A stretch of DNA of 32,000 nt, taken from Bdellovibrionales bacterium. GTDB lineage: Bacteria > Bdellovibrionota > Bdellovibrionia > Bdellovibrionales > UBA1609. The notes beneath the pieces are model-generated. The model was not told the origin of the DNA and did not search any database. It saw only the letters and a list, made by a program, of their open reading frames with translations. The position numbers and the translations under genes were made by a program. Positions 5,248-19,311 of the stretch are shown piece after piece. How positions within the stretch are numbered: position 1 is the stretch's first letter; every line of letters begins with the position of its first letter. The stretch lies in NCBI GenBank assembly GCA_965247685.1, contig OZ252021.1:750001-782000 (forward strand). Reading direction: 5' to 3'.

Positions 5248-6630
5248 GTGCAAGAAAAGTTCACTCAGGAATTAAAAGCTTTTTTATCTGAAGATCAAAT
5301 GATCACAAAATCCAATGAAATGTCTTCCTATGGAAAAGATTGGTTGAGCTTATACACACCTCATCCCTTAGGAGTTGTTTTTCCTAAAAAAACTCAAGAT
5401 GTTGTCCAGCTCGTCAAATGGGCTATCCATAATAAAATCGCTCTTGTTCCTTCAGGAGGTCGAACGGGGCTCAGCGGCGGAGCGACAGCTCTTCATCAAG
5501 AGGTGATTGTCTCTTTTGAAAAGATGAATCAGTTGGTGGAATGGAATGAACTTGAGGCGACTTTCACAGTCGAGGCAGGCTTTATCACCAGTGAATTACA
5601 AAGGATGGCAAAAGAAAAAGGATACTATTTCCCTATTTCTTTTGCGGCTGAAGGCTCGAGTCACATTGGTGGAAATGTAGCCACTAATGCGGGTGGAGTT
5701 CATGTAATTCGATATGGTATGATGAGAAAGTGGGTTCGAGCTTTAGAAGTGGTCACTGGAACAGGTGAGGTTTTAAATCTAGGCCGTCATCTTATTAAAG
5801 ATGCTACAGGCTACAATCTTTTACATCTTTTTATTGGTTCTGAAGGAACTTTAGGTTTTATTACAAAAGTAACGGTGGAAGTGACGACTCTTCCTAAAGA
5901 ACTTAATGTCTTTTTACTAGGAGTTTCTTCTTTGAAAGATGTCGTTGAAGTGTACTCTCAATTTAAAAAAGATATTCCACTTCATGCTTTTGAAATGATG
6001 ACAGATCTTGCTTTGAATTATGTTCAAGAAACAGGAGTGCAATTTCCACTATCTAATCGGTCGGCTTATTATGTATTAATGAAGATTCCAGAAGAGCATC
6101 AAGAGAAGGCCTTTTCTTTATTTGAAGATTTAATGAATCAAGGAAAAATTGAAGACGGAACTGTCAGTCAAAGTTTTGAGCAAGCTCAGCAGATTTGGTC
6201 TTTAAGAGAAAATATCACAGAGTCTTTGACTCCTTATAAACCTTATAAAAATGATGTGGCTGTAAGAATTTCTCATTTGCCTGATTTTTTAAGTCAAGTG
6301 GATGAGTTGCTTAAAAAAGAATACCCTGACTATAAGGTGGTTTGGTTTGGTCATGTGGGGGATGGAAACCTCCATATTAATATACTCAAACCTGAAACTT
6401 TGAGTGAGTCTGAATTTATTAAAAATTGTGAAAGAGTGAACACTTTACTTTTTTCTAAAATTAAAGAGTTCAAAGGATCTATTTCTGCGGAGCATGGGGT
6501 GGGGCTGCTGAAAAAGAATCACCTCCATTATTCTCGCTCCGAAGCTGAAATTCGGTACATGAAGCAAATTAAAAATATTTTTGATCCTCACCATATTATC
6601 AATCCAGGAAAAATCATTGATATAAGGTAA
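5248..6630 (+). CDS. FAD-binding oxidoreductase, GlcD / D-2-hydroxyacid dehydrogenase family
   Basis: 460 aa with FAD_binding_4-type motifs (VPSGGRTGLSGGA, GGNVATNAGG) and the C-terminal FAD-oxidase signature (SAEHGVGLLK, FDP..I.NPGK). GTG start preceded by AAGGGG. Confidence 0.85.
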   Translation: MQEKFTQELKAFLSEDQMITKSNEMSSYGKDWLSLYTPHPLGVVFPKKTQDVVQLVKWAIHNKIALVPSGGRTGLSGGATALHQEVIVSFEKMNQLVEWNELEATFTVEAGFITSELQRMAKEKGYYFPISFAAEGSSHIGGNVATNAGGVHVIRYGMMRKWVRALEVVTGTGEVLNLGRHLIKDATGYNLLHLFIGSEGTLGFITKVTVEVTTLPKELNVFLLGVSSLKDVVEVYSQFKKDIPLHAFEMMTDLALNYVQETGVQFPLSNRSAYYVLMKIPEEHQEKAFSLFEDLMNQGKIEDGTVSQSFEQAQQIWSLRENITESLTPYKPYKNDVAVRISHLPDFLSQVDELLKKEYPDYKVVWFGHVGDGNLHINILKPETLSESEFIKNCERVNTLLFSKIKEFKGSISAEHGVGLLKKNHLHYSRSEAEIRYMKQIKNIFDPHHIINPGKIIDIR

Positions 6631-6772
6631 ATGTCATTTTTTTTGAATCTATAGCTTACTTTTTATTATTGTTTCAAATTGAAACAATAAAAAGAGGATG
6701 AGGGCTCTTATTTTATGTTTTTCAGACGGACAGTTATATAACAATCATTACTTTAAAAAAACAGAAATTTCT

Positions 6773-6799
6773 TAAAGTTTTTCCCCAATATTCCGATTG
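6773..6799 (+). promoter_or_regulatory. candidate sigma-28 (FliA)-type promoter upstream of flp
   Basis: TAAAGTTT (6773-6780), an 11-nt spacer, then TCCGATTG (6792-6799), compared with the consensus TAAAGTTT-N11-GCCGATAA. It lies about 22 nt upstream of the flp ATG, with GGAGG at 6809-6813 in between. Confidence 0.35.
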
Positions 6800-6821
6800 A
6801 TAAGTTACGGAGGTATTTTTT

Positions 6822-7013
6822 ATGAAAAACATAAAAAAACATGTGAAAAACTTTTTGAAAGATGAATCAGGTCAAGGAACTACAGAATATATCCTCATTC
6901 TTGTTGCGATTGTCGGTGTTGTAACGTTTTTTGGTAAGGACATTACTGCCATTCTTAGAGGCAAGGTAAGTACATTAGGCACCGCGATTACAAATTTTAA
7001 CCCTAGTCCTTAA
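6822..7013 (+). CDS. flp: Flp-family type IVc (Tad) prepilin
   Basis: 63 aa: MKNIKKHVKNFLKDESG|QGTTEYILILVAIVGVV.... It has a basic leader, the G-x4-EY Flp processing motif and a hydrophobic helix. The FLKDESG..EY segment closely resembles the Caulobacter PilA leader. Confidence 0.85.
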   Translation: MKNIKKHVKNFLKDESGQGTTEYILILVAIVGVVTFFGKDITAILRGKVSTLGTAITNFNPSP

Positions 7014-7026
7014 TTAGAGATTTGTC

Positions 7027-7218
7027 TTGATTACAGAATATATACTTTTGGCGTTGCTCACGATAGGGATATTAACCACAGTGGTAGTCCCTACTCGAAG
7101 TGTTTTTCAAAACGCCACTCCACAGCTTGCCGTTCGTGTGGAAAGATACATTATGACAGGTTATCTGCATAGTAAACTGCATTGTGACACCTTGCCTGGT
7201 AGTTGCTGGAAAGAGTAA
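7027..7218 (+). CDS. Flp-like ORF lacking a leader peptide (possible degenerate or leaderless minor pilin)
   Basis: TTG start, 13 nt after the flp stop. Begins (M)ITEYILLALLTIGIL, i.e. the TEY plus hydrophobic-helix core of a mature Flp. No leader or processing Gly is possible, because an in-frame stop sits at 7015-7017. Confidence 0.4.
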   Translation: MITEYILLALLTIGILTTVVVPTRSVFQNATPQLAVRVERYIMTGYLHSKLHCDTLPGSCWKE

Positions 7219-7299
7219 CGGGTCTTCATTTTAAATTTTTGTTTTCCTTATACAAATTATATTGTTAAAATAACAAGACTTGGAATAAGGGGAAGTCCC

Positions 7300-7842
7300 A
7301 TGAATAATCAGTTGGATTATGATTTTATTTTGACAGTGGTAGCAACACTCATTCTTTTAGCAGGGGTTTTTGATGATCTTCGTTCTCGAAAAATTCACAA
7401 TAAGCTTATTTTAATTCTCATACCTATTGCGATTCTATCAGTTTTTGTTACGAATTTTTTTCGAGTGGATTGGATCTTTGCTTTTAGATCTTTACTTGAA
7501 GTGAGTTTAGCATCTGGTTTCATTGCTTTATTACTGGGTTTAGCTCTTTACATGGCAAAGGTTTTAGGTGGAGGTGATGTTAAACTTTATTTCGTCTTTG
7601 CTCTTGTGGCAGGCATTCAGGCCACTGTAGGAGCTTTAATTTTAAGCTTTATTTGGGGAGGACTTCTTGGTATTTTTATGTCTGTTTTAAAAAACCAATG
7701 GAAAAGCTTGCTCCAAAATATATTCTCTTTGTTCAAATTTCAAAAATTACCGAGGGAAAAACTTCAATTTTTACCATTTTCAGTCGTCTTATTTTTAGGT
7801 TGGATCAGCTTTCAAGTATTAAAAGATCTTAATTTCATCTGA
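7300..7842 (+). CDS. cpaA: A24-family prepilin peptidase CpaA/TadV
   Basis: 180-aa polytopic membrane protein. First catalytic Asp context is VFDDLRSRKIHN and the second is GGGDVKL. Position is directly after the pilin genes. Confidence 0.85.
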   Translation: MNNQLDYDFILTVVATLILLAGVFDDLRSRKIHNKLILILIPIAILSVFVTNFFRVDWIFAFRSLLEVSLASGFIALLLGLALYMAKVLGGGDVKLYFVFALVAGIQATVGALILSFIWGGLLGIFMSVLKNQWKSLLQNIFSLFKFQKLPREKLQFLPFSVVLFLGWISFQVLKDLNFI

Positions 7843-7917
7843 TGCTTAACTTGCACTAAAGTCTGGATAGCTGGTTGAAATAGTGAAGAATATAAGAAAT
7901 ATAATCATTTGGAGAAG

Positions 7918-8214
7918 ATGATGAAAAAAAGAAAAATGACTTGTAATTCTTTTGTTGGTCAAAGAGGACAAGTGGTTGTTGAATATATACTTTTGATGGT
8001 ATTGTTGTTTTCTTTGACTCTTATCGTTTTTAAAGGCTTTGATTTACCATTTAATAAGTTTGTGAATCGTCCTAAGGAGCTTTTTCAAGGGCTTTCTCGA
8101 TCCGGATCTTGGATCAAGTACGAAGAGGCTCGGCCTGGAAATTCACCAGATCTCGATCATCACCCTGCAAAAAAGTCTCATCATCTACAGGTTGAAGGTA
8201 GAACTGTTCGATAA
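7918..8214 (+). CDS. TadE/Flp-like pseudopilin with prepilin-type leader
   Basis: ...KMTCNSFVGQRG|QVVVEYILLMVLLFSLTLIV: G-x4-EY motif followed by a hydrophobic helix. The mature part, about 80 aa, is longer than an Flp and shorter than a typical TadE. The track start is TTG 7909; ATG 7918 or 7921 after GGAG (7911-7914) is more likely. Confidence 0.6.
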   Translation: MMKKRKMTCNSFVGQRGQVVVEYILLMVLLFSLTLIVFKGFDLPFNKFVNRPKELFQGLSRSGSWIKYEEARPGNSPDLDHHPAKKSHHLQVEGRTVR

Positions 8215-8251
8215 GTATTTTGCTTAATAGTGTATATTCTTCATTCTGGAT

Positions 8252-8315
8252 TCAGTTTTTCAATATTTGATCAAAAACTGATAGAAAAAAGCGTTAAACT
8301 TTAATGAATAACGCT
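8252..8315 (+). promoter_or_regulatory. two tandem stem-loops between the pilin/peptidase module and the machinery module
   Basis: TCAGTTTTT (8252-8260) pairs with AAAAACTGA (8273-8281). AGCGTTA (8290-8296) pairs with TAACGCT (8309-8315). Neither is followed by a clear T-run. Confidence 0.3.
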
Positions 8316-8382
8316 CAAAATTCCGAAAAAAGTAATGGGTAGAAATAGGATTTTTAATGCTTAAGCTCCTGAGGAGGATATT

Positions 8383-9210
8383 ATGAGTAAAAATGAAACC
8401 TTAGTTTTATGGTTGAGTGTGGGATTGGCTATTTTTTCCGTCATGTTGATATATAGCTACACTCAAGAAAAATCTGATGAGCTAACAAAGCAGTTTGGAA
8501 CTAAAACCTCAGTGGTTGTTTCAAATCGAGATATTAATGAGATGGAAACCATTGATGAATCTATGATTCAACTGGCCGAAATACCTCTCGATTTTACTCA
8601 GCCTGGTCATGTGACAGATATGGAAGATGCTGTGGGGCTTGTAGCACTCGCTCCTATTCAGGCTGGAGAACAAATATTAAGTAATAAAATTGTAAGACCA
8701 GGTCCGATAACAGGTTTGTCTTTGCAAGTGACTCCTCAAAACAGAGCTTTAACTATTCCTGTGGATGAAATGAGAGGAGTTGCAAAATTGATTAAGCCGG
8801 GAGATCGAGTGGATATTCTTGCGGTCTTACATGTACAAAGCGGAGGATCACCTAAGCATGTCAAAACAGTTTTGCAAGATGTAGTTATTTTAGCAACAGG
8901 TCTGAATATTATGAATGAATTGCCTCGGTTGCACACGAGTTCAGGTTCTAAAGAATTTATTGAAAATATTAGATCCAAAGCTGATTTTTCTACTATTACG
9001 GTTGAAGCAACACCTCAAGAAATTCAGGAGCTCGTGTATATACTGTCCTCCAGCCCCAGTTCTTTATTTATAACTTTGCGCCATCCTACAGACCGATTGA
9101 GAGCAAATGTTCCTTACACAACAAGTTTGGAGCATATTGTAGGTAAAAAACTTTCTCAAGAAGCTAATAAACCCAAAGTTATCACTAGAAGAAAAGTGAA
9201 CTTACAATAA
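8383..9210 (+). CDS. cpaB: Flp pilus assembly protein CpaB/RcpC
   Basis: N-terminal TM anchor, SAF-like segment (VVVSNRDINEMETIDESMI...GEQILSNKIV) and the RcpC region (RALTIPVDEMRGVAKLIKPGDRVDILA). GGAGG RBS before the ATG. Confidence 0.85.
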   Translation: MSKNETLVLWLSVGLAIFSVMLIYSYTQEKSDELTKQFGTKTSVVVSNRDINEMETIDESMIQLAEIPLDFTQPGHVTDMEDAVGLVALAPIQAGEQILSNKIVRPGPITGLSLQVTPQNRALTIPVDEMRGVAKLIKPGDRVDILAVLHVQSGGSPKHVKTVLQDVVILATGLNIMNELPRLHTSSGSKEFIENIRSKADFSTITVEATPQEIQELVYILSSSPSSLFITLRHPTDRLRANVPYTTSLEHIVGKKLSQEANKPKVITRRKVNLQ

Positions 9211-9222
9211 AGGATTTTTCAT

Positions 9223-10671
9223 TTGAGATGTTTTTATTTTATATTTCTTATTTTATGTTTTTCTGCTTCGACTCTCGAAGAATCTATTCCTTTATCTGTA
9301 GGGTTTGATACAGATTTTTCTTTAGATGATGAATGGAAAGGTAAAAAATTGTTATTTGGAGGGACTTATAAAAAGGTAACCGGAATAACGTACGACTCAT
9401 CTAAAAACTCTATCCGTTTTCAGCCGAAAAAAAGAGGTGTAGGTTCTTTGATTGTAAAAGAAGGAAAAAAGATATTAAAGAGATATACCGTCTCTGTACA
9501 AGAAACAGATTTACATCAAGTGGCTCACGAAATTAAATCCCTCCTAGGAGAGATCGATGGCATTGAAATTATTATTATTAACAATAAAGTTGTAGTGGAT
9601 GGAGAGATTTTTATTCCTCGTGATGTTCGGCGGATTTCTAATGTCGTTGGTCAATACGGAAAAAAAGCTGTTTCATTAGTCACTTTGAGTGTTTCTGCTC
9701 AGAATAAAGTAGCTCAGTTTATTGAAAGAGAAATTGGAAACCCTAACATCACTGTAAAAGCAGCTAATGAAACATTTATTCTAAGAGGAACGGTGTCTAA
9801 TCCTAAAGAAAAAGAAGATGCATATATTATTGCGCAACTTTATGTTCCGGATGTAGTTATAGATCCTTCTTTGGGAAAAGCTATTCGAGAGAGAGTGAAA
9901 AAGCAGCCTATTATTAATTTAATAAAAGTGAAACTGCCTCCTAAAAAAGAAGCTAAGCAAAATAAACTGGTGCAATTGATCGTACATTATGTGGAGCTGG
10001 ATAAAGACTACACAGATCAATTTCGTTTTCAGTGGGCTCCAAAGATTGAAGAATCTACAAAGGTGACTTTGGGAAGTCAGATTGGATCTGTTATTACAGG
10101 TACGATTTCGAATTTTTTACCTAAACTGAACTGGGCGAAACAATTTGGCTTTGCTCGTGTTCTCAATAGCTCCAACATTATTGTAGAAAATGGGGAAGAA
10201 GGCTATATCTCTTCAACGACTGAGATTCCTTTTGGCACTTTACAAGGGGCAGATGGTTCTTCCCAGCCCAACACCACTAAAGAGGAGATTAGTTTAGGGA
10301 TTACTCCTACTATCGTAGGTAAAAGGGAAGATGGAGTGCGTTTAACTGTGAACTTTCGAGTGAGATCTTTAGCGGGTACTACTGGTGGACGTCCCATTAT
10401 GAATGAAAGATCAATTAGGACTAAGGTTTATGTTCGCAGTGGCCTGAGTGCTGCTGTTGGAGGCATTATTTCTGATATCGACACTCAAGGATTCAACCGT
10501 GAACCTGCAGGAAGTAATTCCTCAGCAGGTGATCCTATATTTAATTTACTATCCTCAAAGTCATTTCAAAGAAAGAAAAATCAGTTTGTCGTTTTCGTCA
10601 CGCCAGTGATTCGAAGTTCAGCAAGTACAGATGTCGAAAAAATCAAACAAAAATTTAGAATTAAAAGGTAG
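9223..10671 (+). CDS. cpaC: Tad secretin CpaC/RcpA
   Basis: Signal peptide, a BON-like N-domain (FILRGTVSNPKEKEDAYIIAQLY) and a C-terminal secretin domain (RSGLSAAVGGIISD..., PIFNLL...QFVVFVTPVI). TTG start with AAAGGA 7 nt upstream. Confidence 0.85.
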   Translation: MRCFYFIFLILCFSASTLEESIPLSVGFDTDFSLDDEWKGKKLLFGGTYKKVTGITYDSSKNSIRFQPKKRGVGSLIVKEGKKILKRYTVSVQETDLHQVAHEIKSLLGEIDGIEIIIINNKVVVDGEIFIPRDVRRISNVVGQYGKKAVSLVTLSVSAQNKVAQFIEREIGNPNITVKAANETFILRGTVSNPKEKEDAYIIAQLYVPDVVIDPSLGKAIRERVKKQPIINLIKVKLPPKKEAKQNKLVQLIVHYVELDKDYTDQFRFQWAPKIEESTKVTLGSQIGSVITGTISNFLPKLNWAKQFGFARVLNSSNIIVENGEEGYISSTTEIPFGTLQGADGSSQPNTTKEEISLGITPTIVGKREDGVRLTVNFRVRSLAGTTGGRPIMNERSIRTKVYVRSGLSAAVGGIISDIDTQGFNREPAGSNSSAGDPIFNLLSSKSFQRKKNQFVVFVTPVIRSSASTDVEKIKQKFRIKR

Positions 10672-10675
10672 AGTA

Positions 10676-12898
10676 ATGAATCCAAATCATATTATAGGAG
10701 TTATTGGCGGAAAAGGTGGAGTCGGTAAAAGTATTTTTACTGCGAACTTGGCCATGGCTATACAAAAAGAACTTCGCTCTCCAACATTGCTGATAGATTT
10801 AGATAGTAAAAGCTGTGGAGATCAAAATATCATTTTAGGGTTGAAGCCAGTTAAAACTGTATCTCAATTTACTAACTACAAAGGTATTATTTCTCAGAAT
10901 TCACTTCGATCTTTATTTGCACAACATACTTCAGGTTTGTCCTACTTAGGGGCGGTAATGAGTCCGGAACAGATTTTAAAAGGAGATTCTCGTCTTTTTT
11001 CCCAGCAATTAATGAGTTTAAAACAAAACTATAAATATATTTGCGTCGATCTAGGATGTGAAATCAATGATTTACAATTGGAAGTTTTAAATTTGTTGAG
11101 TACTTTGTTTGTCGTTGTGACGCCAGAAATTTTAGTGATTAATCAAACAAGAAGGATTTTGAATGAACTTGTTGCTGCCACATTACCGAGTGAGCTGATC
11201 AATGTTGTTGTCAATAAATACACAAAATCTGCAATTCCATCTTTAACTATTCAAAAAGCTTTAGAGACTCCAATTTTGAATGTTATTCCCAGTGATGACA
11301 GGTTGTCTCTGCATGCTTTGCAAACTTCTCAACCTTTTGTTTTATCTCAACCCCAATCAGCAATATCTCAATCCTATCATAAAATTGTCAGACAGCTTGT
11401 TGGTGGGGTATTACAAAAAAACCAAAATATATCTCGACCTAAAATCAAAAAGAAACCTTTAAATTCCAGCAACAATACACTTCAAAAAGAAGATGAAAAT
11501 TTAGATCCTTTAACTTTGTTAAAATTACAGGTTCATTCTGAACTGGTTCAGGAAATGGATCTGAATAAAGATCTCACAAAAGCCAAAACAAAAGATGCTA
11601 AAGATGAGATTAGAAATCAAGCTGCCCGTATTGTCACTCGACTTGTGGATTCTAAAGCTCAGCACTTATCACGAAAAGAAAGAAGTTTTGTAGTGAAAAG
11701 TGTTTTGGATGAAGCTATAGGGCTTGGAGCTTTAGAAGAACTCTTAGCGGATCAATCTGTGACGGAAATTATGGTGAATGGAGCTTCAAAAATTTACATT
11801 GAAAAAAATGGAAAATTACAACTTTCCCCTGTTGGTTTTACTTCTAATTTACACTTAAAAAATATTATTGAAAGGATTGTAACCCCTTTAGGGCGTCGTA
11901 TTAATGAGAAAGTTCCTTATGTGGATGCACGTTTGACGGACGGGAGTCGAGTTCATGCTATCATAGAGCCTTTAGCTATTGATGGACCTACAGTCACTAT
12001 TAGAAAATTTCCGAGTGAGAGAATTGTGATTGATGATCTCGTTCACAAGTTTGGCTCTCTTACGAAGGGAATGGGTGCATTTTTAAAAATATGTGTGGAG
12101 CAAGGTTTGAATGTGATTATCTCTGGGGGTACTGGATCAGGTAAAACAACATTATTAAATGTACTTTCTGCTTTTATTCCAGAAAGGGATAGAATTATTA
12201 CCGTAGAAGATGCAGCAGAACTTCAGCTTAAACAAAATCATGTGGTTCGTTTAGAAACCAGAAAGTCTAGCGTCGAAGGCACGGGTGAAGTGACTATCAG
12301 AGATCTCATTATTAATTCTTTACGTATGAGACCCGATCGTATTATTGTCGGTGAATGTCGTGATGGCGCAGCTTTAGATATGTTAGCAGCTATGAATACA
12401 GGTCATGAAGGGTCCATGACGACTGTTCATGCCAATAATCCTAGGGAAGCAGTCTCTCGATTGGAAAATTTGTGTTTAATGGCGGGGATGGATTTACCGG
12501 CTAAAGCTATTCGTGAGCAAATAGCCAGCGCCGTCCAATTAATTATTCAAATTAGTCGAATGAGTGATGGCTCTAGAAAAGTCAAAAGTATTACTGAAAT
12601 TTGTGGTGTTCAGGGTGATGTGGTGACATTGCAAGAAATATTTAGATTTAAGGAAACAGGGTTTGATAAAAATAGAAAAATTACTGGACAATTTCAAGCA
12701 ATGGGTCGTGTGCCGACTTTTATTGAGAGATTTGAACGAAGAGGTGTGCATATTCCAAGAGATTTATTTACAACACAGCAATCTATTAGTCCTGCCTCAA
12801 AAAGTCCAAATAAAAATTTAATACGTCCTAAAATATCAGTTCCTCGAGTGATTAAACCTTTTCCAAAAAATAATAAAGATAAGAAGGTGGGAGCATGA
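10676..12898 (+). CDS. cpaF: fused CpaE/TadZ-like ParA/MinD ATPase domain + CpaF/TadA secretion ATPase
   Basis: N-terminal ~260 aa carry the deviant Walker A of the MinD/ParA/CpaE family: IGVIGGKGGVGKS, followed by ...ICVDLG and ...VVVTPE. After a K-rich linker comes a complete CpaF: GLGALEELLADQSVTEIMVNG, Walker A ISGGTGSGKTTLLN, ITVEDAAEL, RMRPDRIIVGECRDGAA and TGHEGSMTTVHAN. It is one uninterrupted ORF. The track start 10631 overlaps cpaC; ATG 10676 lies 5 nt after the cpaC stop. Confidence 0.85.
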   Translation: MNPNHIIGVIGGKGGVGKSIFTANLAMAIQKELRSPTLLIDLDSKSCGDQNIILGLKPVKTVSQFTNYKGIISQNSLRSLFAQHTSGLSYLGAVMSPEQILKGDSRLFSQQLMSLKQNYKYICVDLGCEINDLQLEVLNLLSTLFVVVTPEILVINQTRRILNELVAATLPSELINVVVNKYTKSAIPSLTIQKALETPILNVIPSDDRLSLHALQTSQPFVLSQPQSAISQSYHKIVRQLVGGVLQKNQNISRPKIKKKPLNSSNNTLQKEDENLDPLTLLKLQVHSELVQEMDLNKDLTKAKTKDAKDEIRNQAARIVTRLVDSKAQHLSRKERSFVVKSVLDEAIGLGALEELLADQSVTEIMVNGASKIYIEKNGKLQLSPVGFTSNLHLKNIIERIVTPLGRRINEKVPYVDARLTDGSRVHAIIEPLAIDGPTVTIRKFPSERIVIDDLVHKFGSLTKGMGAFLKICVEQGLNVIISGGTGSGKTTLLNVLSAFIPERDRIITVEDAAELQLKQNHVVRLETRKSSVEGTGEVTIRDLIINSLRMRPDRIIVGECRDGAALDMLAAMNTGHEGSMTTVHANNPREAVSRLENLCLMAGMDLPAKAIREQIASAVQLIIQISRMSDGSRKVKSITEICGVQGDVVTLQEIFRFKETGFDKNRKITGQFQAMGRVPTFIERFERRGVHIPRDLFTTQQSISPASKSPNKNLIRPKISVPRVIKPFPKNNKDKKVGA

Positions 12899-13773
12899 GT
12901 TTTTTTGTTCAAAATGAATGGTTATTATTTACCACAGTTTTTGTGACTGTCCTTATTTTAGGTTATCGATTTTTACCTGGAATTTTAAATTTTATTTATT
13001 TAAAAACATCTTCTTCTCAAAAAGAGGTTCTTCAAATCATAGAAAAAATTGGTATTCAAAAAGATGATAAAAAAACCATCTTTTACATATGGAGTTTAAG
13101 CCTGCTTATGTTTGTTTTGCCTGTTATTGCTACTTTGCCTAATATCCTACTGGGTTTGGGTGTAGGGATTATTTTATTTTTTGTAACATGGACTGGTGTT
13201 CGTATGGTGATGCAGTCTATTTGGAGTCAATATTGCTCCACTTTATCCAACCAATTACTAGAGGGATTGATCATTATGACTAGCAGCTTGAAGGCAGGTT
13301 TAAATGTCACTCAAGCAATGGAAAGAGTGGTGGATAATTTAAAAGGACCTTTATCGAGGGAATTTAATCTAATTTTAAGTAAAGTGAAGCTTGGAATGAA
13401 TCTGAATGATGCCTTGAATGAGTTCATGGATAGAGTGGATGTTCCAGATGTAGTTATTTTCGTTACCTCTGTGAATATTTTAAGAGATACTGGTGGAAAT
13501 TTAGCAGAGACTTTTTCGGTTTTAGCAGAGACTATCCGTTCTAGACAAAAAGTGCAGAGTAAAATCAAAGCCCTAACGGCTCAAGGCATGATGCAGGCAA
13601 AAATCATCAGTGTTATTCCTTTTGTAATATTAGGCATAATGTATTTTGTACAACCTGAGTATACAAACATACTTTTTAGTACGGTTTTAGGCTGGGTTTC
13701 GATCATTTTTATGCTTATTTTAGTCATTATAGGTAGATATATGATGACAAAAATGGCTACAATAGATGTATAG
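12895..13773 (+). CDS. tadB: Tad inner-membrane platform protein (T2SSF family, TadB/TadC-like)
   Basis: T2SSF domain: LKAGLNVTQAMERVVDNLKGPLSREFNLILSKVKLGMNLNDALNEFMDRV...NILRDTGGNLAE, with flanking TM helices. ATGA overlap with the cpaF stop. Confidence 0.85.
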   Translation: MSFFVQNEWLLFTTVFVTVLILGYRFLPGILNFIYLKTSSSQKEVLQIIEKIGIQKDDKKTIFYIWSLSLLMFVLPVIATLPNILLGLGVGIILFFVTWTGVRMVMQSIWSQYCSTLSNQLLEGLIIMTSSLKAGLNVTQAMERVVDNLKGPLSREFNLILSKVKLGMNLNDALNEFMDRVDVPDVVIFVTSVNILRDTGGNLAETFSVLAETIRSRQKVQSKIKALTAQGMMQAKIISVIPFVILGIMYFVQPEYTNILFSTVLGWVSIIFMLILVIIGRYMMTKMATIDV

Positions 13774-13803
13774 GATTAAATTTTAAAGAAAAGGAGTGGG
13801 TGA

Positions 13804-15465
13804 ATGAAATTTGTATTAATGATTCTTGTTTTTCTGACTTATTCAGCATGGTCTCTCGTAGATACGAAAAGTGGGAATTATAAAAAGACTTTTGTAGATT
13901 TTAATCTACAAGGTTCTGCATTTCCTTTAACTTTAGAAAGAACGTACAACTCTAGGTCTTTATATAGAGGGCTGTTTGGTATGGGTTGGTGTTCGAATAT
14001 AGAAACACAATTGAGTGTATTACCTGATAATTCCATCAAGATTGTGGAGTGTGGTGGAGGTCAGGAGATTATCTTTTTACCTCCTAAAGTTTCTCAAAAT
14101 TTAAATTTGCAAGTTTCTAAAATTCTTCAATCAGTGAAAAAAAAGAATAGTGATTTAGATGATAAATATATGAGTCAGTTGAAAAATCAATTAATGAAAA
14201 GCCAAGTCTTAAGAAATGAATTTTTAAGAGCTTATAATGTGAAAGGGCGGCCGAGTGAGCAAAAAATTTATCTAGCAGAAGGGCGAAGTAATGATTTATT
14301 AAAGTACAATAAAAAGGGATGGTTTAGAAGAGTTTTACCTAATGGTATTCAACAGTTTTTCTCTTCTTCTAATGGGAGATTAACGCAAATTTCTGATCTT
14401 TCCGGTAACTATATCAAAATAGTATGGCGAAAAGATCAGGTGCAGTACATGATGGATAATACGGGTCGACGAATAGTTTTTGAAAAAGACAGAGCAGGTC
14501 AAATCAGTAGAGTTAAAGGTGTAGGAAAAGTTTTAGCTTCTTATCTTATAGAAGATAATAATTTAGTTCGAGTGAGGAATCAAAATGGCAGTTACAATTT
14601 TTCTTATGATGAACTTCATAATTTAACACAAATTATTTACCCTGTTCAGGGTAAGAATCGCCCTAAGGAAAGTCTCACTTACGATAAAAAGAAAGATTGG
14701 GTGATGAGTTTTACAAATCAGAAAAAATGTAAAGAGACATATCAGTATAAAACAAATTCTAAAAATCCTAATCATTATTGGACAGATGTGATGAAAAAAT
14801 GTGGTCGACGAGTAACGAATAAAAGTCGCTATGAGTTTTGGAATAAAAAAGGCGCTGGTGGAACTCTTTATTTACATAGAGCTCGTCAGGAGGTAAATGG
14901 GAGTATTCGTGATGTCAGTTATCACTCTACTTTCAAAAGGGTTTCAAGTATTACTCAAAATAATCTTCGTACAAAGTATAATTATTATGAGTCAGGAAGT
15001 AATGTAGGTATGCTGAAGGGAAAATCGAGTAAAACTCAAAAAACTGTTTTTGCGAAGTACAATAATAAGTGTCGCAAACCAACTCGAGTGATTCTTCAGG
15101 CTCTTTCCAAAGGTAAAGTTTCTGAACGGCAAACAATTGATATCCAATATAATGCTAAGTCTTGTTTAATGTACCGAGTTTCTCGATCGGATGGCCGCTG
15201 GGTGAGTTTAGCTCATGATGAGAAGGGGCGTATTCAAAGGATGGAAGATCAATCCGGTAAGGTTATTATGGTAGCTTACAATAATATAGTGAATAAGCCT
15301 AAAAAGATCACTCACAAGGGAGTGGGTTCTATCGAGTTGGTGTATGACTCTAAGGGAGCCTCTCGGCTGAAAAAGGATAATCCTTTAATCATAGGTCAGG
15401 TCTTGTCTGTATTTAATGGATTGATGCAGATTATTTCTCCTGTAGCTCAAGAGTTTAGCGTATAA
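13804..15465 (+). CDS. secreted YD/RHS-repeat protein without recognisable toxin domain
   Basis: Signal peptide, then an RHS-type N-terminal motif (DTKSGNYKKTFVDFNLQGSAFPLTLERTYNSRS...GLFGMGW). Multiple YD-type repeats follow (NGRLTQISDLSGNYI, NTGRRIVFEKDRAGQISRV, NGSYNFSYDELHNLTQIIY, LTYDKKKDWV, HDEKGRIQRMEDQSGKVI, LVYDSKGA). No PxxxxDPxGL core or C-terminal toxin module. AAGGAG RBS. Confidence 0.75.
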   Translation: MKFVLMILVFLTYSAWSLVDTKSGNYKKTFVDFNLQGSAFPLTLERTYNSRSLYRGLFGMGWCSNIETQLSVLPDNSIKIVECGGGQEIIFLPPKVSQNLNLQVSKILQSVKKKNSDLDDKYMSQLKNQLMKSQVLRNEFLRAYNVKGRPSEQKIYLAEGRSNDLLKYNKKGWFRRVLPNGIQQFFSSSNGRLTQISDLSGNYIKIVWRKDQVQYMMDNTGRRIVFEKDRAGQISRVKGVGKVLASYLIEDNNLVRVRNQNGSYNFSYDELHNLTQIIYPVQGKNRPKESLTYDKKKDWVMSFTNQKKCKETYQYKTNSKNPNHYWTDVMKKCGRRVTNKSRYEFWNKKGAGGTLYLHRARQEVNGSIRDVSYHSTFKRVSSITQNNLRTKYNYYESGSNVGMLKGKSSKTQKTVFAKYNNKCRKPTRVILQALSKGKVSERQTIDIQYNAKSCLMYRVSRSDGRWVSLAHDEKGRIQRMEDQSGKVIMVAYNNIVNKPKKITHKGVGSIELVYDSKGASRLKKDNPLIIGQVLSVFNGLMQIISPVAQEFSV

Positions 15466-15476
15466 CGGAGGTTGGT

Positions 15477-15731
15477 ATGTCATTTTCTAAGAAAGTATTT
15501 ATATTAATTGTTATAGGTATTTCCAGTTTAGCTTTTGGTGCTTCAAAAGAAGATGTTCAAACAGAGGCGATAGGTGTGACTCCGCCATGTGAGCATTGTG
15601 GTCCGACTGTCACAGGGGTGCAGCGTAATGATCGTACAAATTGTGATAATCCTCTCTTACCTGAAAGTAAGTGTAGTACTACATCTAAAGAGTCTCTTGA
15701 TGATAAAAAAGATACCAGGGGTATCCGGTAG
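15477..15731 (+). CDS. small secreted Cys-containing protein
   Basis: GGAGG RBS; ATG lies 11 nt after the YD gene stop. Signal peptide MSFSKKVFILIVIGISSLAFG|AS. The mature ~63 aa carry 4 Cys, including CEHC. Confidence 0.5.
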   Translation: MSFSKKVFILIVIGISSLAFGASKEDVQTEAIGVTPPCEHCGPTVTGVQRNDRTNCDNPLLPESKCSTTSKESLDDKKDTRGIR

Positions 15732-15867
15732 AAGATCTGGAGTCCACTTTTTTCGCGTCCTAATTCTTAGAGAAGATTGATGGAGTATAAGGCTATGAAA
15801 AATAGAGAGTGCTAAAGAACCAGAAGAATTTTCTATAATGGGAGTGATATTTTCTTGTTTTTTATAT

Positions 15868-15963
15868 TCATTCTGCCATTCTTTCTGGTAATTGATAGTA
15901 AGACAGCTTTGCAAAAGAAGAAGAGATAAAAAATAAAACCAAAAGTAAAGATAAAAATTTCAT
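15868..15963 (-). pseudogene. truncated duplicate of the 5' end (signal peptide) of the adjacent LRR-like gene
   Basis: Manual translation gives MKFLSLLLVLFFISSSFAKLSYYQLPERMAE*. The first 21 aa are identical to the 16794..16027 gene because both lie in the direct repeat. The next residues are still similar (SYYQLPERM vs SICQLPIGM), then a stop follows. Confidence 0.5.
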
Positions 15964-16029
15964 TTAAAATCCTTGCTTAGAAAAAGGTTGTTAAACCTAG
16001 CCTAACATAACTTAAAAGTGAGTTAACTA
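15902..16029. repeat. direct repeat copy 1 (5'UTR + RBS + signal-peptide module)
   Basis: 128 nt matching 16733-16859. The first ~93 nt are identical; after that there are one 1-nt indel and two substitutions. Confidence 0.9.
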
Positions 16030-16794
16030 GGTTGGATCACGATTAAGGGTTTTGAGAGAGTTGCAAAGCTTAGAAAGAGAACCACTACCTCCAGCACCAA
16101 TCGCTCCATGTTCTCCAAATATTTGGAATTGCCTTTCATAACAACAAGAAGACGGAAACTTATTCACGCCATCTTGATAGCCAATAAACAAAGCATTAAG
16201 CCATTTATTATGATCACATAGATCATCAGGCCAATTTCCATTGACTCCCCAAGCTGGTGCTAAACTTAACACCTGAACCAAAGGAATCTGTTTAAAAAAC
16301 TCAGAATCGGAAATGCCTCTAAATACTTTACTACGTATTTCAAATTCAAGAAGCTGTGGATTCTGGGCGAAAAGCTTGGTCGGTATAGTCTCGATATTGT
16401 CCCCTTCAATTACAACACGTGTTAAGTGCGGAAGCCCATGAAGAAGAGTTTCTGGTATCTGTGATTGATCGGTGCGAATTGTCACTCCCTTTAAGTTAGG
16501 AAAGTGTAAAAGAGTTTTATTTTCCAACTTAAGTGCTATTTTTCCTGACTCACCGTTCATCTCAGAGCTACCATAGAAAATATAGTCCACTCTATGAAGG
16601 TATGGGTCAAAAGCAGAACATCCTTGAGTATTATATTTTTCTAACAATTCATTATATTCTTTTTCTGTAAGTACATTTTCTCTAAGAGACCAATCAATAG
16701 AATCCTGCATCCCTATTGGCAGTTGGCAAATCGACAGCTTTGCAAAAGAAGAAGAGATAAAAAATAAAACCAAAAGTAAAGATAAAAATTTCAT
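16027..16794 (-). CDS. secreted leucine-rich-repeat-like, Cys-containing protein
   Basis: Signal peptide MKFLSLLLVLFFISSSFA. LRR-like units: LLHFPNLKGVTIRTDQSQIPETLLHGLPHLTRVVIEGDNIETIPTKLFAQNPQLLEFEI. C-terminal region has CC and a GAGGSGS stretch. Confidence 0.65.
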   Translation of the reverse strand: MKFLSLLLVLFFISSSFAKLSICQLPIGMQDSIDWSLRENVLTEKEYNELLEKYNTQGCSAFDPYLHRVDYIFYGSSEMNGESGKIALKLENKTLLHFPNLKGVTIRTDQSQIPETLLHGLPHLTRVVIEGDNIETIPTKLFAQNPQLLEFEIRSKVFRGISDSEFFKQIPLVQVLSLAPAWGVNGNWPDDLCDHNKWLNALFIGYQDGVNKFPSSCCYERQFQIFGEHGAIGAGGSGSLSKLCNSLKTLNRDPT

Positions 16795-16859
16795 TTAAAA
16801 TCCTTGCTTAGAAAAAGGTTGTTAACCTAGCCTAACATAATTGAAAAGTGAGTTAACTA
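16733..16859. repeat. direct repeat copy 2 (5'UTR + RBS + signal-peptide module)
   Basis: 127 nt matching 15902-16029. It contains the AAGGA RBS, the ATG (16794) and the first 21 codons of the LRR-like gene. Confidence 0.9.
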
Positions 16860-16917
16860 TTATTATGAATAAAAAGCTCAAAAATGTCAAAAAAAAGAGT
16901 GTAAAAATTACATTTCA

Positions 16918-19311
16918 TTAAAAACCGTGACTTCTTTTTTCATTTTGTAAAAGGTCTCGAACTCCAGGAAACTCTCGATCAATAATTTTAATTGAAAAAC
17001 CTGTTCTTCCTCCCACAATACAATGAGAAAAATGTAGAATATGTCTGTTGATCTGTTTTCTATCCCATCTAAGATAAGGAACGCCATTCCTACGCTTGAC
17101 TACTAAGGAAGCTGTTTTAAGCTCTGTATCTCTTAAATGGCAACATTGAAAGGGAACATCATTACCTTTGCAGTCTTTTGCTCGATTACCCATCACATTT
17201 GGAGCAGGTGGATATATATCATCGAGTGTCGGCCCTTGAGGGTCCATACTGGAAACCCATGAAGTAAGAAGGTGATCAATATTAAAAAGCTTAAAATAAA
17301 CCTCCTCTAAAATTGCTTTCGGGTGAAAATATTCCTTCTGAATAACATTCACCCAGTTTATTTGCTTTTCAGTATAGTTCAGATAAAAAGGAATTTTATA
17401 ACTTCCTGTTTCAAGGAACCCTTGAGGCTTTAGAGGAGGTGGAGGAGCCCGAAGATGTTGTATGTATTCTGGACCCAGATCATCTGCAAAAAGGGGAGAA
17501 GGAGAATTCCTAATTTTGTTTAAAAACTCCTCATCTGCATAATGACCAATATCTGCTGGAACATAGTTAAATATATAATCACCTCGATTATTTTTACTTT
17601 CCATAAGACGAATATAGGCACTCACCATATAGTTAGGCAAAATCGCATAATGGTTCAAATCATACTCATCTGGAGCTATCGCTATCTCCTCTAAAACACG
17701 AGCAGGCAAAGTAAAGATTTTATCTTTCTTCAGTACATAATTATTAGAAGAACCATCCTCGTAAGGTAAGACCATAGCAGAGGTAGAATTATTGTTATTA
17801 ACATCATGGAGCCCATGGAGCTGTTGATAGTTTTGTAAACTTAAGCCTGCATCTTTTGCTCCTCCATTTACATTGACTATTTTTCGAATCAGCTTATTAA
17901 AATAATACTGTCTTTGACCATCTAGTAAACCATAGTTATCGTCATCTCTCTCAAAACTAAGCGAATAAACAGGGTATCTAGATGTTGGTGGTATAGTAGG
18001 TAATAGTGCATTTTTATATGGACCAAATGATGATCCAAAAGGCTTAGAGTAAGCTTCTGCTACCAAGGAAATAGGCTCCCTAAAAGGAAAAAATATCGCA
18101 CTCTTGTAATTAATATGTAAAAAGATTTGGATGTAAAAAAAATTCTGTGTATTTTGCTTTTTCATAAAACCAACCACTACTGGTTCATTCTTGATTGTCT
18201 TTAAGCCATCACATATATTGCTATTACTATTATCAGTATGCCTTTGAATCAGATTGCAACTTGTACCTGAACTACAAGTCTGAGCTTCACAAATTTCAAA
18301 AATAGTTTTGATCTCTCTTTCACAAGCACTTTGGGAATTGTTTCTCCCTCTATCTTGAACATAGAACAAATCGAGATCAGGGGGGTTAATTGTTATCCAT
18401 TCAAAATATTCATCAAAATTTCCCTCATTAGAGGTCTTTGTATAAATTATTCCATTTCTACTCCTATAACTCTCATACACAGGATAAGTGAAATTCTTAG
18501 TAATTGTATTCTTCACTCCCACATCAATATAAGCCCCTCCAAGCTCTCTTTTTTTGCTAATAATTTCATTAAAATATTTTTTGATAAATTCCTTTCTTTT
18601 TTTCTGCTCTTCGTAAAAACTTAAATATGTTGTAGAAGCTACCATCCAGTTCACGTAACCTGAATACCTACAGGAATCTCTTATACTACTTATCCTGTTG
18701 CTGACTTCTGCATTCGCAAAACGAGCTCCGTAAGTACTACCACCAGCTAGTGGAGGAAGATCGTATGGCTGATCAACCCTCTGGCAAACATTGTCAGTAC
18801 CGTTTTTGCCTGGAATATCAAAATAAGGATGCCATACACAAAATGCGAAAGGGCAACCACCACCTCCACCTACTCGACGACTGTGACCTTGATGACAGTC
18901 TGTTATGGGTGAAGGATCGAATGCTCCCGTAGAACATCCGCTAAGAGTGTTTGGGCACACAGTTTTATTCTTAGAAGGAACGGATCTTGGTCGAGCTATA
19001 CCAATCAGATCCATGTTTGCAGTAGCGCCCCCTGGATTTTGGTAAGCTCCTATATTTCCTAAAACATTGTATCGATATGAAAAAAGCTTGTAGTTTTGTC
19101 TTAACTGATAATTCAAATGAGACAAAACACTGAGAGTCTCAGCTTGCCTTTGAGCCGCATACATTGCACCAATATCTACAGAATTTTGAACATTGATCTT
19201 ATGATGAACCATAAGACCAACTCCCATCACCATTCCAAAAATGGTCAGAGAACCTAGAATAAATAATATACCAAAAATAGAGAGAAGACCTTTTGAGCGA
19301 ACCATTTTCAT
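16918..19311 (-). CDS. large Cys-rich membrane-anchored protein with TadG-like N-terminus
   Basis: 797 aa. The N-terminus KGLLSIFGILFILGSLTIFGMVMGVGLMVHHKINVQNSVDIGAMYAAQRQA fits the TadE/G-like 'Tad' N-terminal pattern: a hydrophobic helix, then D-x-G...LQNA-DAAALA-like sequence. The remainder has many Cys clusters and no family I recognise. Convergent with the tad operon. Confidence 0.55.
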   Translation of the reverse strand: MKMVRSKGLLSIFGILFILGSLTIFGMVMGVGLMVHHKINVQNSVDIGAMYAAQRQAETLSVLSHLNYQLRQNYKLFSYRYNVLGNIGAYQNPGGATANMDLIGIARPRSVPSKNKTVCPNTLSGCSTGAFDPSPITDCHQGHSRRVGGGGGCPFAFCVWHPYFDIPGKNGTDNVCQRVDQPYDLPPLAGGSTYGARFANAEVSNRISSIRDSCRYSGYVNWMVASTTYLSFYEEQKKRKEFIKKYFNEIISKKRELGGAYIDVGVKNTITKNFTYPVYESYRSRNGIIYTKTSNEGNFDEYFEWITINPPDLDLFYVQDRGRNNSQSACEREIKTIFEICEAQTCSSGTSCNLIQRHTDNSNSNICDGLKTIKNEPVVVGFMKKQNTQNFFYIQIFLHINYKSAIFFPFREPISLVAEAYSKPFGSSFGPYKNALLPTIPPTSRYPVYSLSFERDDDNYGLLDGQRQYYFNKLIRKIVNVNGGAKDAGLSLQNYQQLHGLHDVNNNNSTSAMVLPYEDGSSNNYVLKKDKIFTLPARVLEEIAIAPDEYDLNHYAILPNYMVSAYIRLMESKNNRGDYIFNYVPADIGHYADEEFLNKIRNSPSPLFADDLGPEYIQHLRAPPPPLKPQGFLETGSYKIPFYLNYTEKQINWVNVIQKEYFHPKAILEEVYFKLFNIDHLLTSWVSSMDPQGPTLDDIYPPAPNVMGNRAKDCKGNDVPFQCCHLRDTELKTASLVVKRRNGVPYLRWDRKQINRHILHFSHCIVGGRTGFSIKIIDREFPGVRDLLQNEKRSHGF

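Follow-up and report, generated by a model that had tools for sequence, protein, structure and literature searches.

A short YD-repeat gene and its small, putatively exported neighbour at the end of a Bdellovibrionales Tad pilus operon: a probable version of the Bdellovibrio hit locus

The hit locus is the classic genetic switch by which Bdellovibrio changes between obligate predation and growth without prey. Two products of this locus are Bd0109, an exported RHS/YD protein that Capeness et al. (2013) cloned as L19-L550, and Bd0108, an exported protein of 101 amino acids (aa) (PMC3818213). Here we describe a gene pair from an uncultured Bdellovibrionales bacterium that is probably a local version of this locus, at the distal end of a Tad/Flp predation-pilus operon. 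The pair lies in a 32,000-nucleotide (nt) stretch of contig OZ252021.1 (positions 750,001 to 782,000 of the forward strand), which as a whole we call the window. It consists of a gene for a short YD-repeat protein of 553 aa, predicted to be Sec-exported (13804..15465, plus strand), and a gene for a small, putatively Sec-exported protein of 84 aa with four cysteines (15477..15731, plus strand), which occupies the position of Bd0108.

In the hit locus, bd0108, bd0109, bd0110 and bd0111 are co-transcribed, and an interaction between Bd0108 and Bd0109 was shown (PMC3818213). Deletion of bd0109 failed, which the authors read as a sign that the gene is likely essential, and mutations in bd0108 led to prey-independent (HI) growth and altered piliation (PMC3818213). 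Prehna et al. (2014) found Bd0108 to be intrinsically disordered, with a C56-x-x-C59 disulfide, and showed that Bd0109 binds it directly through Bd0108 residues 24-66, with a dissociation constant (Kd) of 45 uM and at a ratio of about 3:1 (PMC4267844). By nuclear magnetic resonance (NMR), bound Bd0108 stays disordered and in fast exchange, and its residues 89-101 are unaffected; the authors proposed that the Rhs-type domain encapsulates the disordered Bd0108 (PMC4267844). Co-transcription, direct binding, the failed bd0109 deletion and the prey-independent bd0108 mutants are results from B. bacteriovorus only (PMC3818213, PMC4267844). For Bdellovibrio-and-like organisms more broadly, Avidan et al. 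(2017) counted bd0109-bd0113 among the core genes of the attack phase that are kept in synteny (PMC5430801).

Related proteins have been described elsewhere. According to work cited in PMC3818213 and PMC4267844, Myxococcus xanthus mutated in MXAN_6679 cannot retract its type IV pili unless methylcellulose is present. As described in those citing papers, MXAN_6679 resembles the window protein in being a YD-repeat protein, one that affects pilus extension or retraction in a predator, and differs from the window pair in that these descriptions give it no small partner. Halobacteriovorax (Bacteriovorax) marinus SJ encodes BMS_0182, a Bd0109 homologue with 35% identity, which is followed by BMS_0183/4 (PMC4267844). 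By that description, its small secreted neighbours are without detectable similarity to Bd0108, as is the case in the window; there are two of them, whereas in the window only one small gene follows the YD gene.

Gene order and relatives of the YD-repeat protein

The original prediction placed both open reading frames (ORFs) directly after tadB, on the same strand and behind strong ribosome-binding sites, and all of this holds. The YD gene starts 30 nt past the tadB stop codon (13771-13773), with AAGGAG 7 nt 5′ of its ATG, and ends in a TAA at 15463-15465; after a gap of 11 nt comes the small gene, with GGAGG 5 nt 5′ of its ATG. A promoter and terminator scan performed no better than on shuffled sequence and was therefore used only for the absence of plus-strand terminator-like sites, of which none was seen within 6500-17000. 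Upstream on the same strand stands a Tad/Flp (type IVc, Kil-like) set, comprising the Flp pilin, the prepilin peptidase, CpaB, the secretin, TadZ/TadA and TadB. The arrangement matches that of the TAD operon of B. bacteriovorus HD100 (bd0109-bd0119; PMC3818213, PMC4267844, PMC5430801), with the same gene order and strand from bd0113 to bd0108.

This arrangement is not peculiar to the window. The YD protein has 306 database homologues, nearly all of them 545-560 aa long, and the few named ones come from Bdellovibrionales or Oligoflexia metagenome-assembled genomes (MAGs). A profile search of 1.84 billion cluster representatives returned 1,131 proteins at E <= 1e-30, with most of the top 150 at ~540-570 aa. 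When we scanned one genome per species, 75 loci were found, almost all in Bdellovibrionales or Pseudobdellovibrionaceae, and the order cpaB, secretin, tadZA, tadB, YD was kept in about 64 of these 75 related loci. This survey of YD genes after tadB bears out the earlier view that the pair belongs with the pilus genes, but not the idea that it was ‘appended’ to them as a recent addition, as it is instead a conserved part of the tad operon across the order.

One connection to the hit locus runs through Pseudobdellovibrio exovorus JSS. Its protein P0197 is 31% identical to the window YD protein over the full length (E 2e-94), and its gene sits in the same order of genes, at 2.42 Mb in CP003537. 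From this position and the tad context we took P0197 to be the tad-linked A11Q_2375, which is 62% identical to Bd0109 (PMC4267844). The ends of Bd0109 itself could be decoded from published cloning primers. Its mature N-terminus reads LVDMKNANYS, compared with LVDTKSGNYK at residues 18-27 of the window protein, and its C-terminus reads PATAELYL, compared with a family consensus of ISPVA.E. A metagenome scan with a pattern based on the Bd0109 N-terminal peptide found 31 loci, none with an exact match to the HD100 primers; the loci found in this way end in DIIAPATAELYL and run for 531 aa from V20, which is exactly the Bd0109 expectation. B. bacteriovorus was unmatched by the genome-scan patterns and absent among the 120 matches listed of a second protein search.

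The window protein thus resembles Bd0109 (550 aa) in size, signal peptide, DUF6531-plus-YD architecture and terminal sequences, and by orthology, synteny and fold class we assign it as the predicted Bd0109 orthologue. It differs in being only ~31% identical to its orthologue from the Bdellovibrio group, and its host differs from B. bacteriovorus in belonging to an uncultured Bdellovibrionales lineage of low guanine-plus-cytosine content (~34% in the window). The module had gone unrecognised as the known Bdellovibrio hit locus in the original prediction, which implied too much novelty: the gene pair is not a new kind of system and is largely described already. Because the module is known and the window holds a distant member of it, novelty is limited; the interest is that what is probably the same two-gene module now appears in a distant, uncultured, low-GC lineage.

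A YD-repeat protein without core or toxin

The RHS N-terminal region that had been noticed in the 553-aa protein is recognised by Pfam as DUF6531 at residues 19-82 (E 5e-13). Pfam also places RHS_repeat at residues 251-280 (E 1e-6), the single such repeat above its threshold, and among NCBIfam models only the YD-repeat model TIGR01643 matches. In an AlphaFold2 model (mean predicted local distance difference test score, pLDDT, of 83.7; alignment of 33 homologues), a signal peptide at 1-17 is followed by the DUF6531 beta domain at ~24-92, three helices at 100-143, about 36 beta strands or YD hairpins at 155-522 and a C-terminal helix at 527-551, which can be aligned across the family and has no domain match. 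The fold matches of this model agree with the several YD repeats that were first proposed: when the PDB was searched with Foldseek, every one of the 47 best matches was a YD shell of the Rhs, teneurin or Tc kind, with E values down to 5e-20 and low query-normalised template-modelling (TM) scores of 0.2-0.4 (maximum 0.40). A sequence profile search of the PDB also matched Rhs proteins (E 3e-11), only over residues ~175-313.

The protein was further said to lack the PxxxxDPxGL cleavage core and any toxin, and our searches agree. None of the PxxxxDPxGL, DPxGL or DPxG motifs occurs in it, and neither NCBIfam nor Pfam gave a match to an RHS core or toxin family, leaving a true YD-repeat protein without core or toxin. 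With the classical Rhs, Tc BC and teneurin cocoons (PDB 7Q97, 8QJC, 4IGL, 6FB3) it shares the YD beta-hairpin fold, and with Rhs toxins also the N-terminal DUF6531 domain. It is unlike the cocoons in being about one third of their size, as is reflected in the TM-scores, and unlike classical Rhs proteins in that it lacks an aspartyl-protease core and a toxin and is encoded without a cytoplasmic immunity partner and outside a type VI secretion system (T6SS) or Tc context; a conserved C-terminal helix stands where the aspartyl-protease core and toxin would be. We rejected the pair as a classical Rhs toxin and immunity pair, in line with the original prediction, after looking for the core motif, the toxin, a full-size shell and a cytoplasmic partner and finding each of them absent.

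DUF6531 and RHS_repeat are nevertheless the domains of classical Rhs toxins, and one could imagine that the locus is what is left of such a cassette, with a truncated Rhs protein that has lost core and toxin next to a degenerate immunity gene or a spurious ORF. Against such decay, the length of 545-560 aa is kept over hundreds of homologues, conservation extends to the C-terminal helix, the YD gene has a fixed place within the tad operon, the partner has a signal peptide and conserved cysteines, and the window showed no genes of T6SS, PAAR or Tc type. We consider a decayed toxin cassette hardly credible and rejected it because of these conservation data.

The YD protein has exactly six cysteines (63, 83, 309, 333, 423 and 454), all invariant in the family alignment, and a site of the signal-peptidase I type between AWS and LVD. 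These two features suggest that it is exported and disulfide-bonded, probably with three stabilising disulfides, for which the predicted pairs are C63-C83, C309-C333 and C423-C454. Conservation in the family is highest in the stretch S50-R-S ... G56 ... G59-x-G-W-C-S-N of the window protein. This stretch, at residues 52-59 (SLYRGLFG), includes the sole internal segment of the model with a pLDDT below 50, and we therefore regard it as a candidate flexible functional loop.

A different reading, also suggested in the original prediction, makes the YD protein a pilus-associated adhesin or carbohydrate binder. On that account it would be displayed at or near the Tad pilus and bind carbohydrate on the prey surface, with the small protein no more than a chaperone or a neighbour without any relation to it. 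The predicted exported form and the three invariant pairs of cysteines suit a stable extracytoplasmic binder, no other large gene follows the YD gene in this pilus operon, which is required for predation, and YD repeats have been linked to carbohydrate or heparin binding in literature that the hit-locus papers cite. However, attempts to delete bd0109 failed even in cells growing without prey, which can do without predation pili, and a pure adhesin role fits poorly for that reason; the adaptable tips described for Kil/Tad predation pili are minor-pilin complexes rather than YD proteins; and the partner gene is linked too consistently for an unrelated neighbour. We regard the adhesin account as very unlikely.

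The fold class of the YD protein is that of the Rhs, Tc and teneurin cocoons, which raises a further possibility, encapsulation. Here the YD sheet, alone or as an oligomer, would enclose the small disordered protein and either protect it or deliver it to the surface or to prey via the Tad secretin. The suggestion that the YD protein might be a carrier for the small peptide had been made from the sequence, and it matches the proposal of Prehna et al. (2014; PMC4267844). In favour of it, Bd0109 binds Bd0108 at 3:1 and shields it from protease, and a small, putatively disordered partner accompanies the YD gene in 59 of 70 loci. This partner, moreover, has a conserved G-x-R/K/Q tail at its C-terminus that makes no contact with Bd0109 in the NMR data, and since Bd0108 residues 89-101 are unaffected there, the tail could be a separate export or recognition signal.

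Size speaks against it. Solved closed Rhs cores have 1020-1050 residues, compared with ~370 residues of YD strands in the window protein, and because the YD monomer is about one third of their size, one chain by itself is unlikely to close into a shell of the solved kind; closure geometry is here judged from size. An oligomer could still form a shell. The TM-scores do not exceed 0.40, there is no plug or aspartyl-protease domain, and the binding of Bd0108 is weak (45 uM), with the bound protein disordered and in fast exchange, unlike an enclosed cargo. The small sheet, the missing plug domain and the NMR exchange of Bd0108 make encapsulation by a monomer less likely, so that the carrier idea stands as a match to a published proposal and not as a closed single-chain shell. 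Overall, encapsulation or delivery appears unlikely to us, and we return to the pair as a probable version of the hit locus, with the small protein as a putative, weakly bound ligand.

The small protein and the position it fills

The second gene encodes, as had been read from the sequence, an 84-aa protein with a signal peptide and four cysteines including a CEHC. The cysteines are at 38, 41, 56 and 66, so that C38-E-H-C41 forms a CxxC, and a site of the signal-peptidase type between AFG and AS leaves 63 mature residues. The mature part has no W, F or Y and 14% hydrophobic residues, which is disorder-like by composition alone. The three closest relatives of the YD protein (77-79% identical) are accompanied by clear homologues of the small protein in which all four cysteines are kept, and the small ORF is for this reason a real gene. 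C38-E-H-C41 is invariant in the window clade, where the protein follows the motif D..TEA.G....CxHC...TNC[DN]NP.LP....C...G[IV]R-end. The small protein evolves much faster than its YD partner: its identity is 43-52% where the YD proteins are 77-79% identical, and 26-29% where they are 63-65% identical. A search of a 5.8-billion-protein database with the small protein returned only itself; we attribute this to the exact-word prefilter, as clear homologues adjoin the close YD relatives.

The window protein shares with Bd0108 its place directly downstream of the YD gene, a signal peptide, a disorder-like composition, a CxxC and a C-terminus of Gly-x-basic/Gln type. Bd0108 has a CxxC and, as decoded from primers, ends in ...AGTGRQ. 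In the metagenome loci, the neighbours of Bd0108 type read VNPGEDPNEA...CxEC...G.[RQ]-end and fit the published Bd0108 residues R29, N32 and D36. P. exovorus has, after its tad-linked YD gene, a gene for a signal-peptide protein of 124 aa with VTEAS in its sequence and SSGTGN at its end.

Across the order the same position is usually filled. A small signal-peptide-like ORF starts no more than 300 nt past the YD stop in 59 of 70 loci, compared with 6.8% at 14,000 random anchor positions. CxxC or CC is present in 29 of these 59 partners (6.0 expected from shuffles), a C-terminal G-x(0-1)-[KRQN] in 30 (2.3 expected), and [TS]E[AG] upstream of a Cys in 35 (10.5 expected); the partner loci are related by descent, and the motif counts overstate their independence. 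With the position filled in ~84% of loci and the motifs recurring, the data suggest that a YD protein paired with a small ligand is an ancestral and general part of the predation pilus operon. This contrasts with the restricted view of bd0108 in recent literature, where the gene is said to occur only in a subgroup of Bdellovibrio or to be lacking in epibiotic predators. The generality of the position and the motif grammar of its occupants are the new element of this analysis, and a modestly new one.

We tentatively extend this to a broader hypothesis, about which we remain somewhat doubtful: a ‘Bd0108 slot’ may be general in the predation-pilus operons of Bdellovibrionota. Nearly all tad-linked orthologues of Bd0109, also in epibiotic predators from which bd0108 is reported to be absent, would then be followed by a fast-evolving, small, secreted, disordered protein with a common grammar (signal peptide, acidic T/S-E-A, CxxC or CC, C-terminal Gly-x-Arg/Lys/Gln), and all of these proteins would be interchangeable as ligands for a YD ‘sensor’ module. 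For experimental work, handles are offered by the T/S-E-A region, the Cys pair and the G-x-R/K/Q tail at the C-terminus.

Many loci have more than one small gene. In L001, L004, L111 and about 25 other loci of the survey, a second small signal-peptide protein is encoded 300-700 nt past the YD stop. Some, as in L001 and L111, are tandem paralogues of the first small protein; others belong to a separate type of 50-80 aa, which has a single Cys close to the mature N-terminus and ends in, for instance, KGTR, RTN or KGNS.

How the pair might work can be sketched from the experiments on B. bacteriovorus. Both proteins would be made from the tad transcript and then exported. Weak, reversible binding of the small protein to the YD protein, by way of the N-terminal half of the small protein (in the window presumably the D..TEA..CxxC region), would tune the action of the YD protein on pilus extrusion and retraction. 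The state of the pilus would in turn feed the choice between attack-phase behaviour and growth. By analogy, we infer that the pair has the same function in the window organism and that the residues of the binding surface correspond.

Several points weigh against reading the pair as a version of the hit locus. Bd0109 was compared through primer-derived terminal peptides only, so that the link rests on P. exovorus, those peptides and the literature, and in the window organism the pair is known here from sequence alone. The 2013 study tied Bd0108 and Bd0109 to type IVa (PilA) and not to Flp pili (PMC3818213). About 10% of related loci are without a recognisable small partner. The small protein differs from Bd0108 in having four cysteines rather than two and 84 aa rather than 101, and the N-terminal Bd0108 motif VNPGEDPN is absent from it, with EDVQTEA in its place. 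Its homology to Bd0108-type proteins was not shown by profile-profile comparison (hhalign, P = 0.41), and iterative hidden Markov model (HMM) searches among 4,564 small ORFs stalled within each clade, with no bridge either way. In view of this P value and the stalled searches we make no claim of homology for the small protein, which is a positional and compositional counterpart of Bd0108 and not a demonstrated homologue.

Related YD modules and the surroundings of the pair

Modules like Bd0109 also occur in other settings. P0300 (locus L112, 6001-10803), P0329 and P0353, and also a protein in L106, are 1,500-1,600 aa long and have a signal peptide and an N-terminal Bd0109-like module. The module consists of DUF6531 and YD repeats (E ~1e-95 to the family profile), has an IVDMKNANY start and is fused to TPR repeats, with a CHAT protease domain at the C-terminal end of the protein; ~1.3 kb upstream of P0300 in L112 lies a gene for a CHASE2 protein. 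Outside Bdellovibrionota, Pseudomonas fluorescens PS918 (L068, 3884-8698) encodes a 566-aa YD homologue, 26% identical to the window protein, 7 nt downstream of a gene for a 1035-aa NACHT/STAND NTPase, and a Hyphomonas MAG (L072, 757-9389) encodes one of 582 aa, 23% identical, between an 895-aa TIR protein and VirB11/VirB4-like ATPases. Both are short, toxin-less DUF6531-YD proteins. The PADLOC defence models gave no match for the YD proteins. The TPR-CHAT fusions and the NACHT and TIR neighbours fit a ligand-binding or sensor role of short YD sheets, although this is only a hint.

The pilus genes upstream of the pair are all on the plus strand. The first encodes a Flp-type pilin of 52 aa (6855..7013), found by a class III signal motif scan (MKDESGQ/GTTEYILILV...); at 32.7 bits (E 5e-8) it just missed the Pfam Flp1_like cut-off of 33.5 bits. 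It is followed by a TadV/CpaA-like prepilin peptidase (7300..7842; Peptidase_A24, E 3.6e-11) and by a longer pilin-like protein of 92 aa (7936..8214; RGQ/VVVEYILLMV...), in which a G/xxxxEY motif precedes a hydrophobic helix. CpaB/RcpC (8383..9210; RcpC, E 1e-17, plus SAF) and the secretin RcpA/CpaC (9223..10671; Secretin, E 4e-17, plus BON) come next. A 755-aa fusion (10631..12898) joins a TadZ-like ParA/MinD part (CbiA/ParA, residues 19-256) to a TadA/CpaF secretion ATPase (T2SSE, residues 364-645, E 7e-61), and the TadB-type platform protein (12895..13773; T2SSF, E 4e-20) begins within the end of tadA, with 4 nt shared between its start and the tadA stop. Its gene is the sole T2SSF gene at the locus, where no tadC was found. 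A TadZ-TadA fusion of 730-755 aa with a single T2SSF gene and no tadC is found throughout the related loci.

The pilin-like protein is conserved in the closest relatives of the window, where its size is 88-94 aa (L109, 126-410; L110, 273-539; L111, 226-495), with G/Q.(3)EY before the hydrophobic helix and no match to a Pfam family. Its C-terminal ends are EGRTVR, EGRK, KGREAR or EGRR. They resemble the Gly-x-basic ends of the small proteins at the Bd0108 position, and a shared recognition signal is therefore possible.

An Rfam scan of the window gave a single match, a chance small nucleolar RNA hit inside a coding region. On the other side of the pair, the minus strand at 16027-19311 encodes a leucine-rich-repeat (LRR)-like protein of 255 aa and a 797-aa protein without a Pfam or NCBIfam family, whose N-terminus may be TadG-like. 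These two genes lie between the small gene and a gene for a 217-aa sigma54-activator-like protein. In L109 and L110 both are absent and the homologue of the 217-aa gene is directly next, and L111 has different inserts, so that the region downstream of the YD module is variable. Within it, a 118-nt direct repeat with 90% identity (15877-15994 and 16708-16825) covers the 5′ end and upstream region of the LRR-like gene. The copy read from 15963 downwards encodes only MKFLSLLLVLFFISSSFAKLSYYQLPERMAE-stop, the first ~20 residues of which match the signal peptide of the 255-aa protein.

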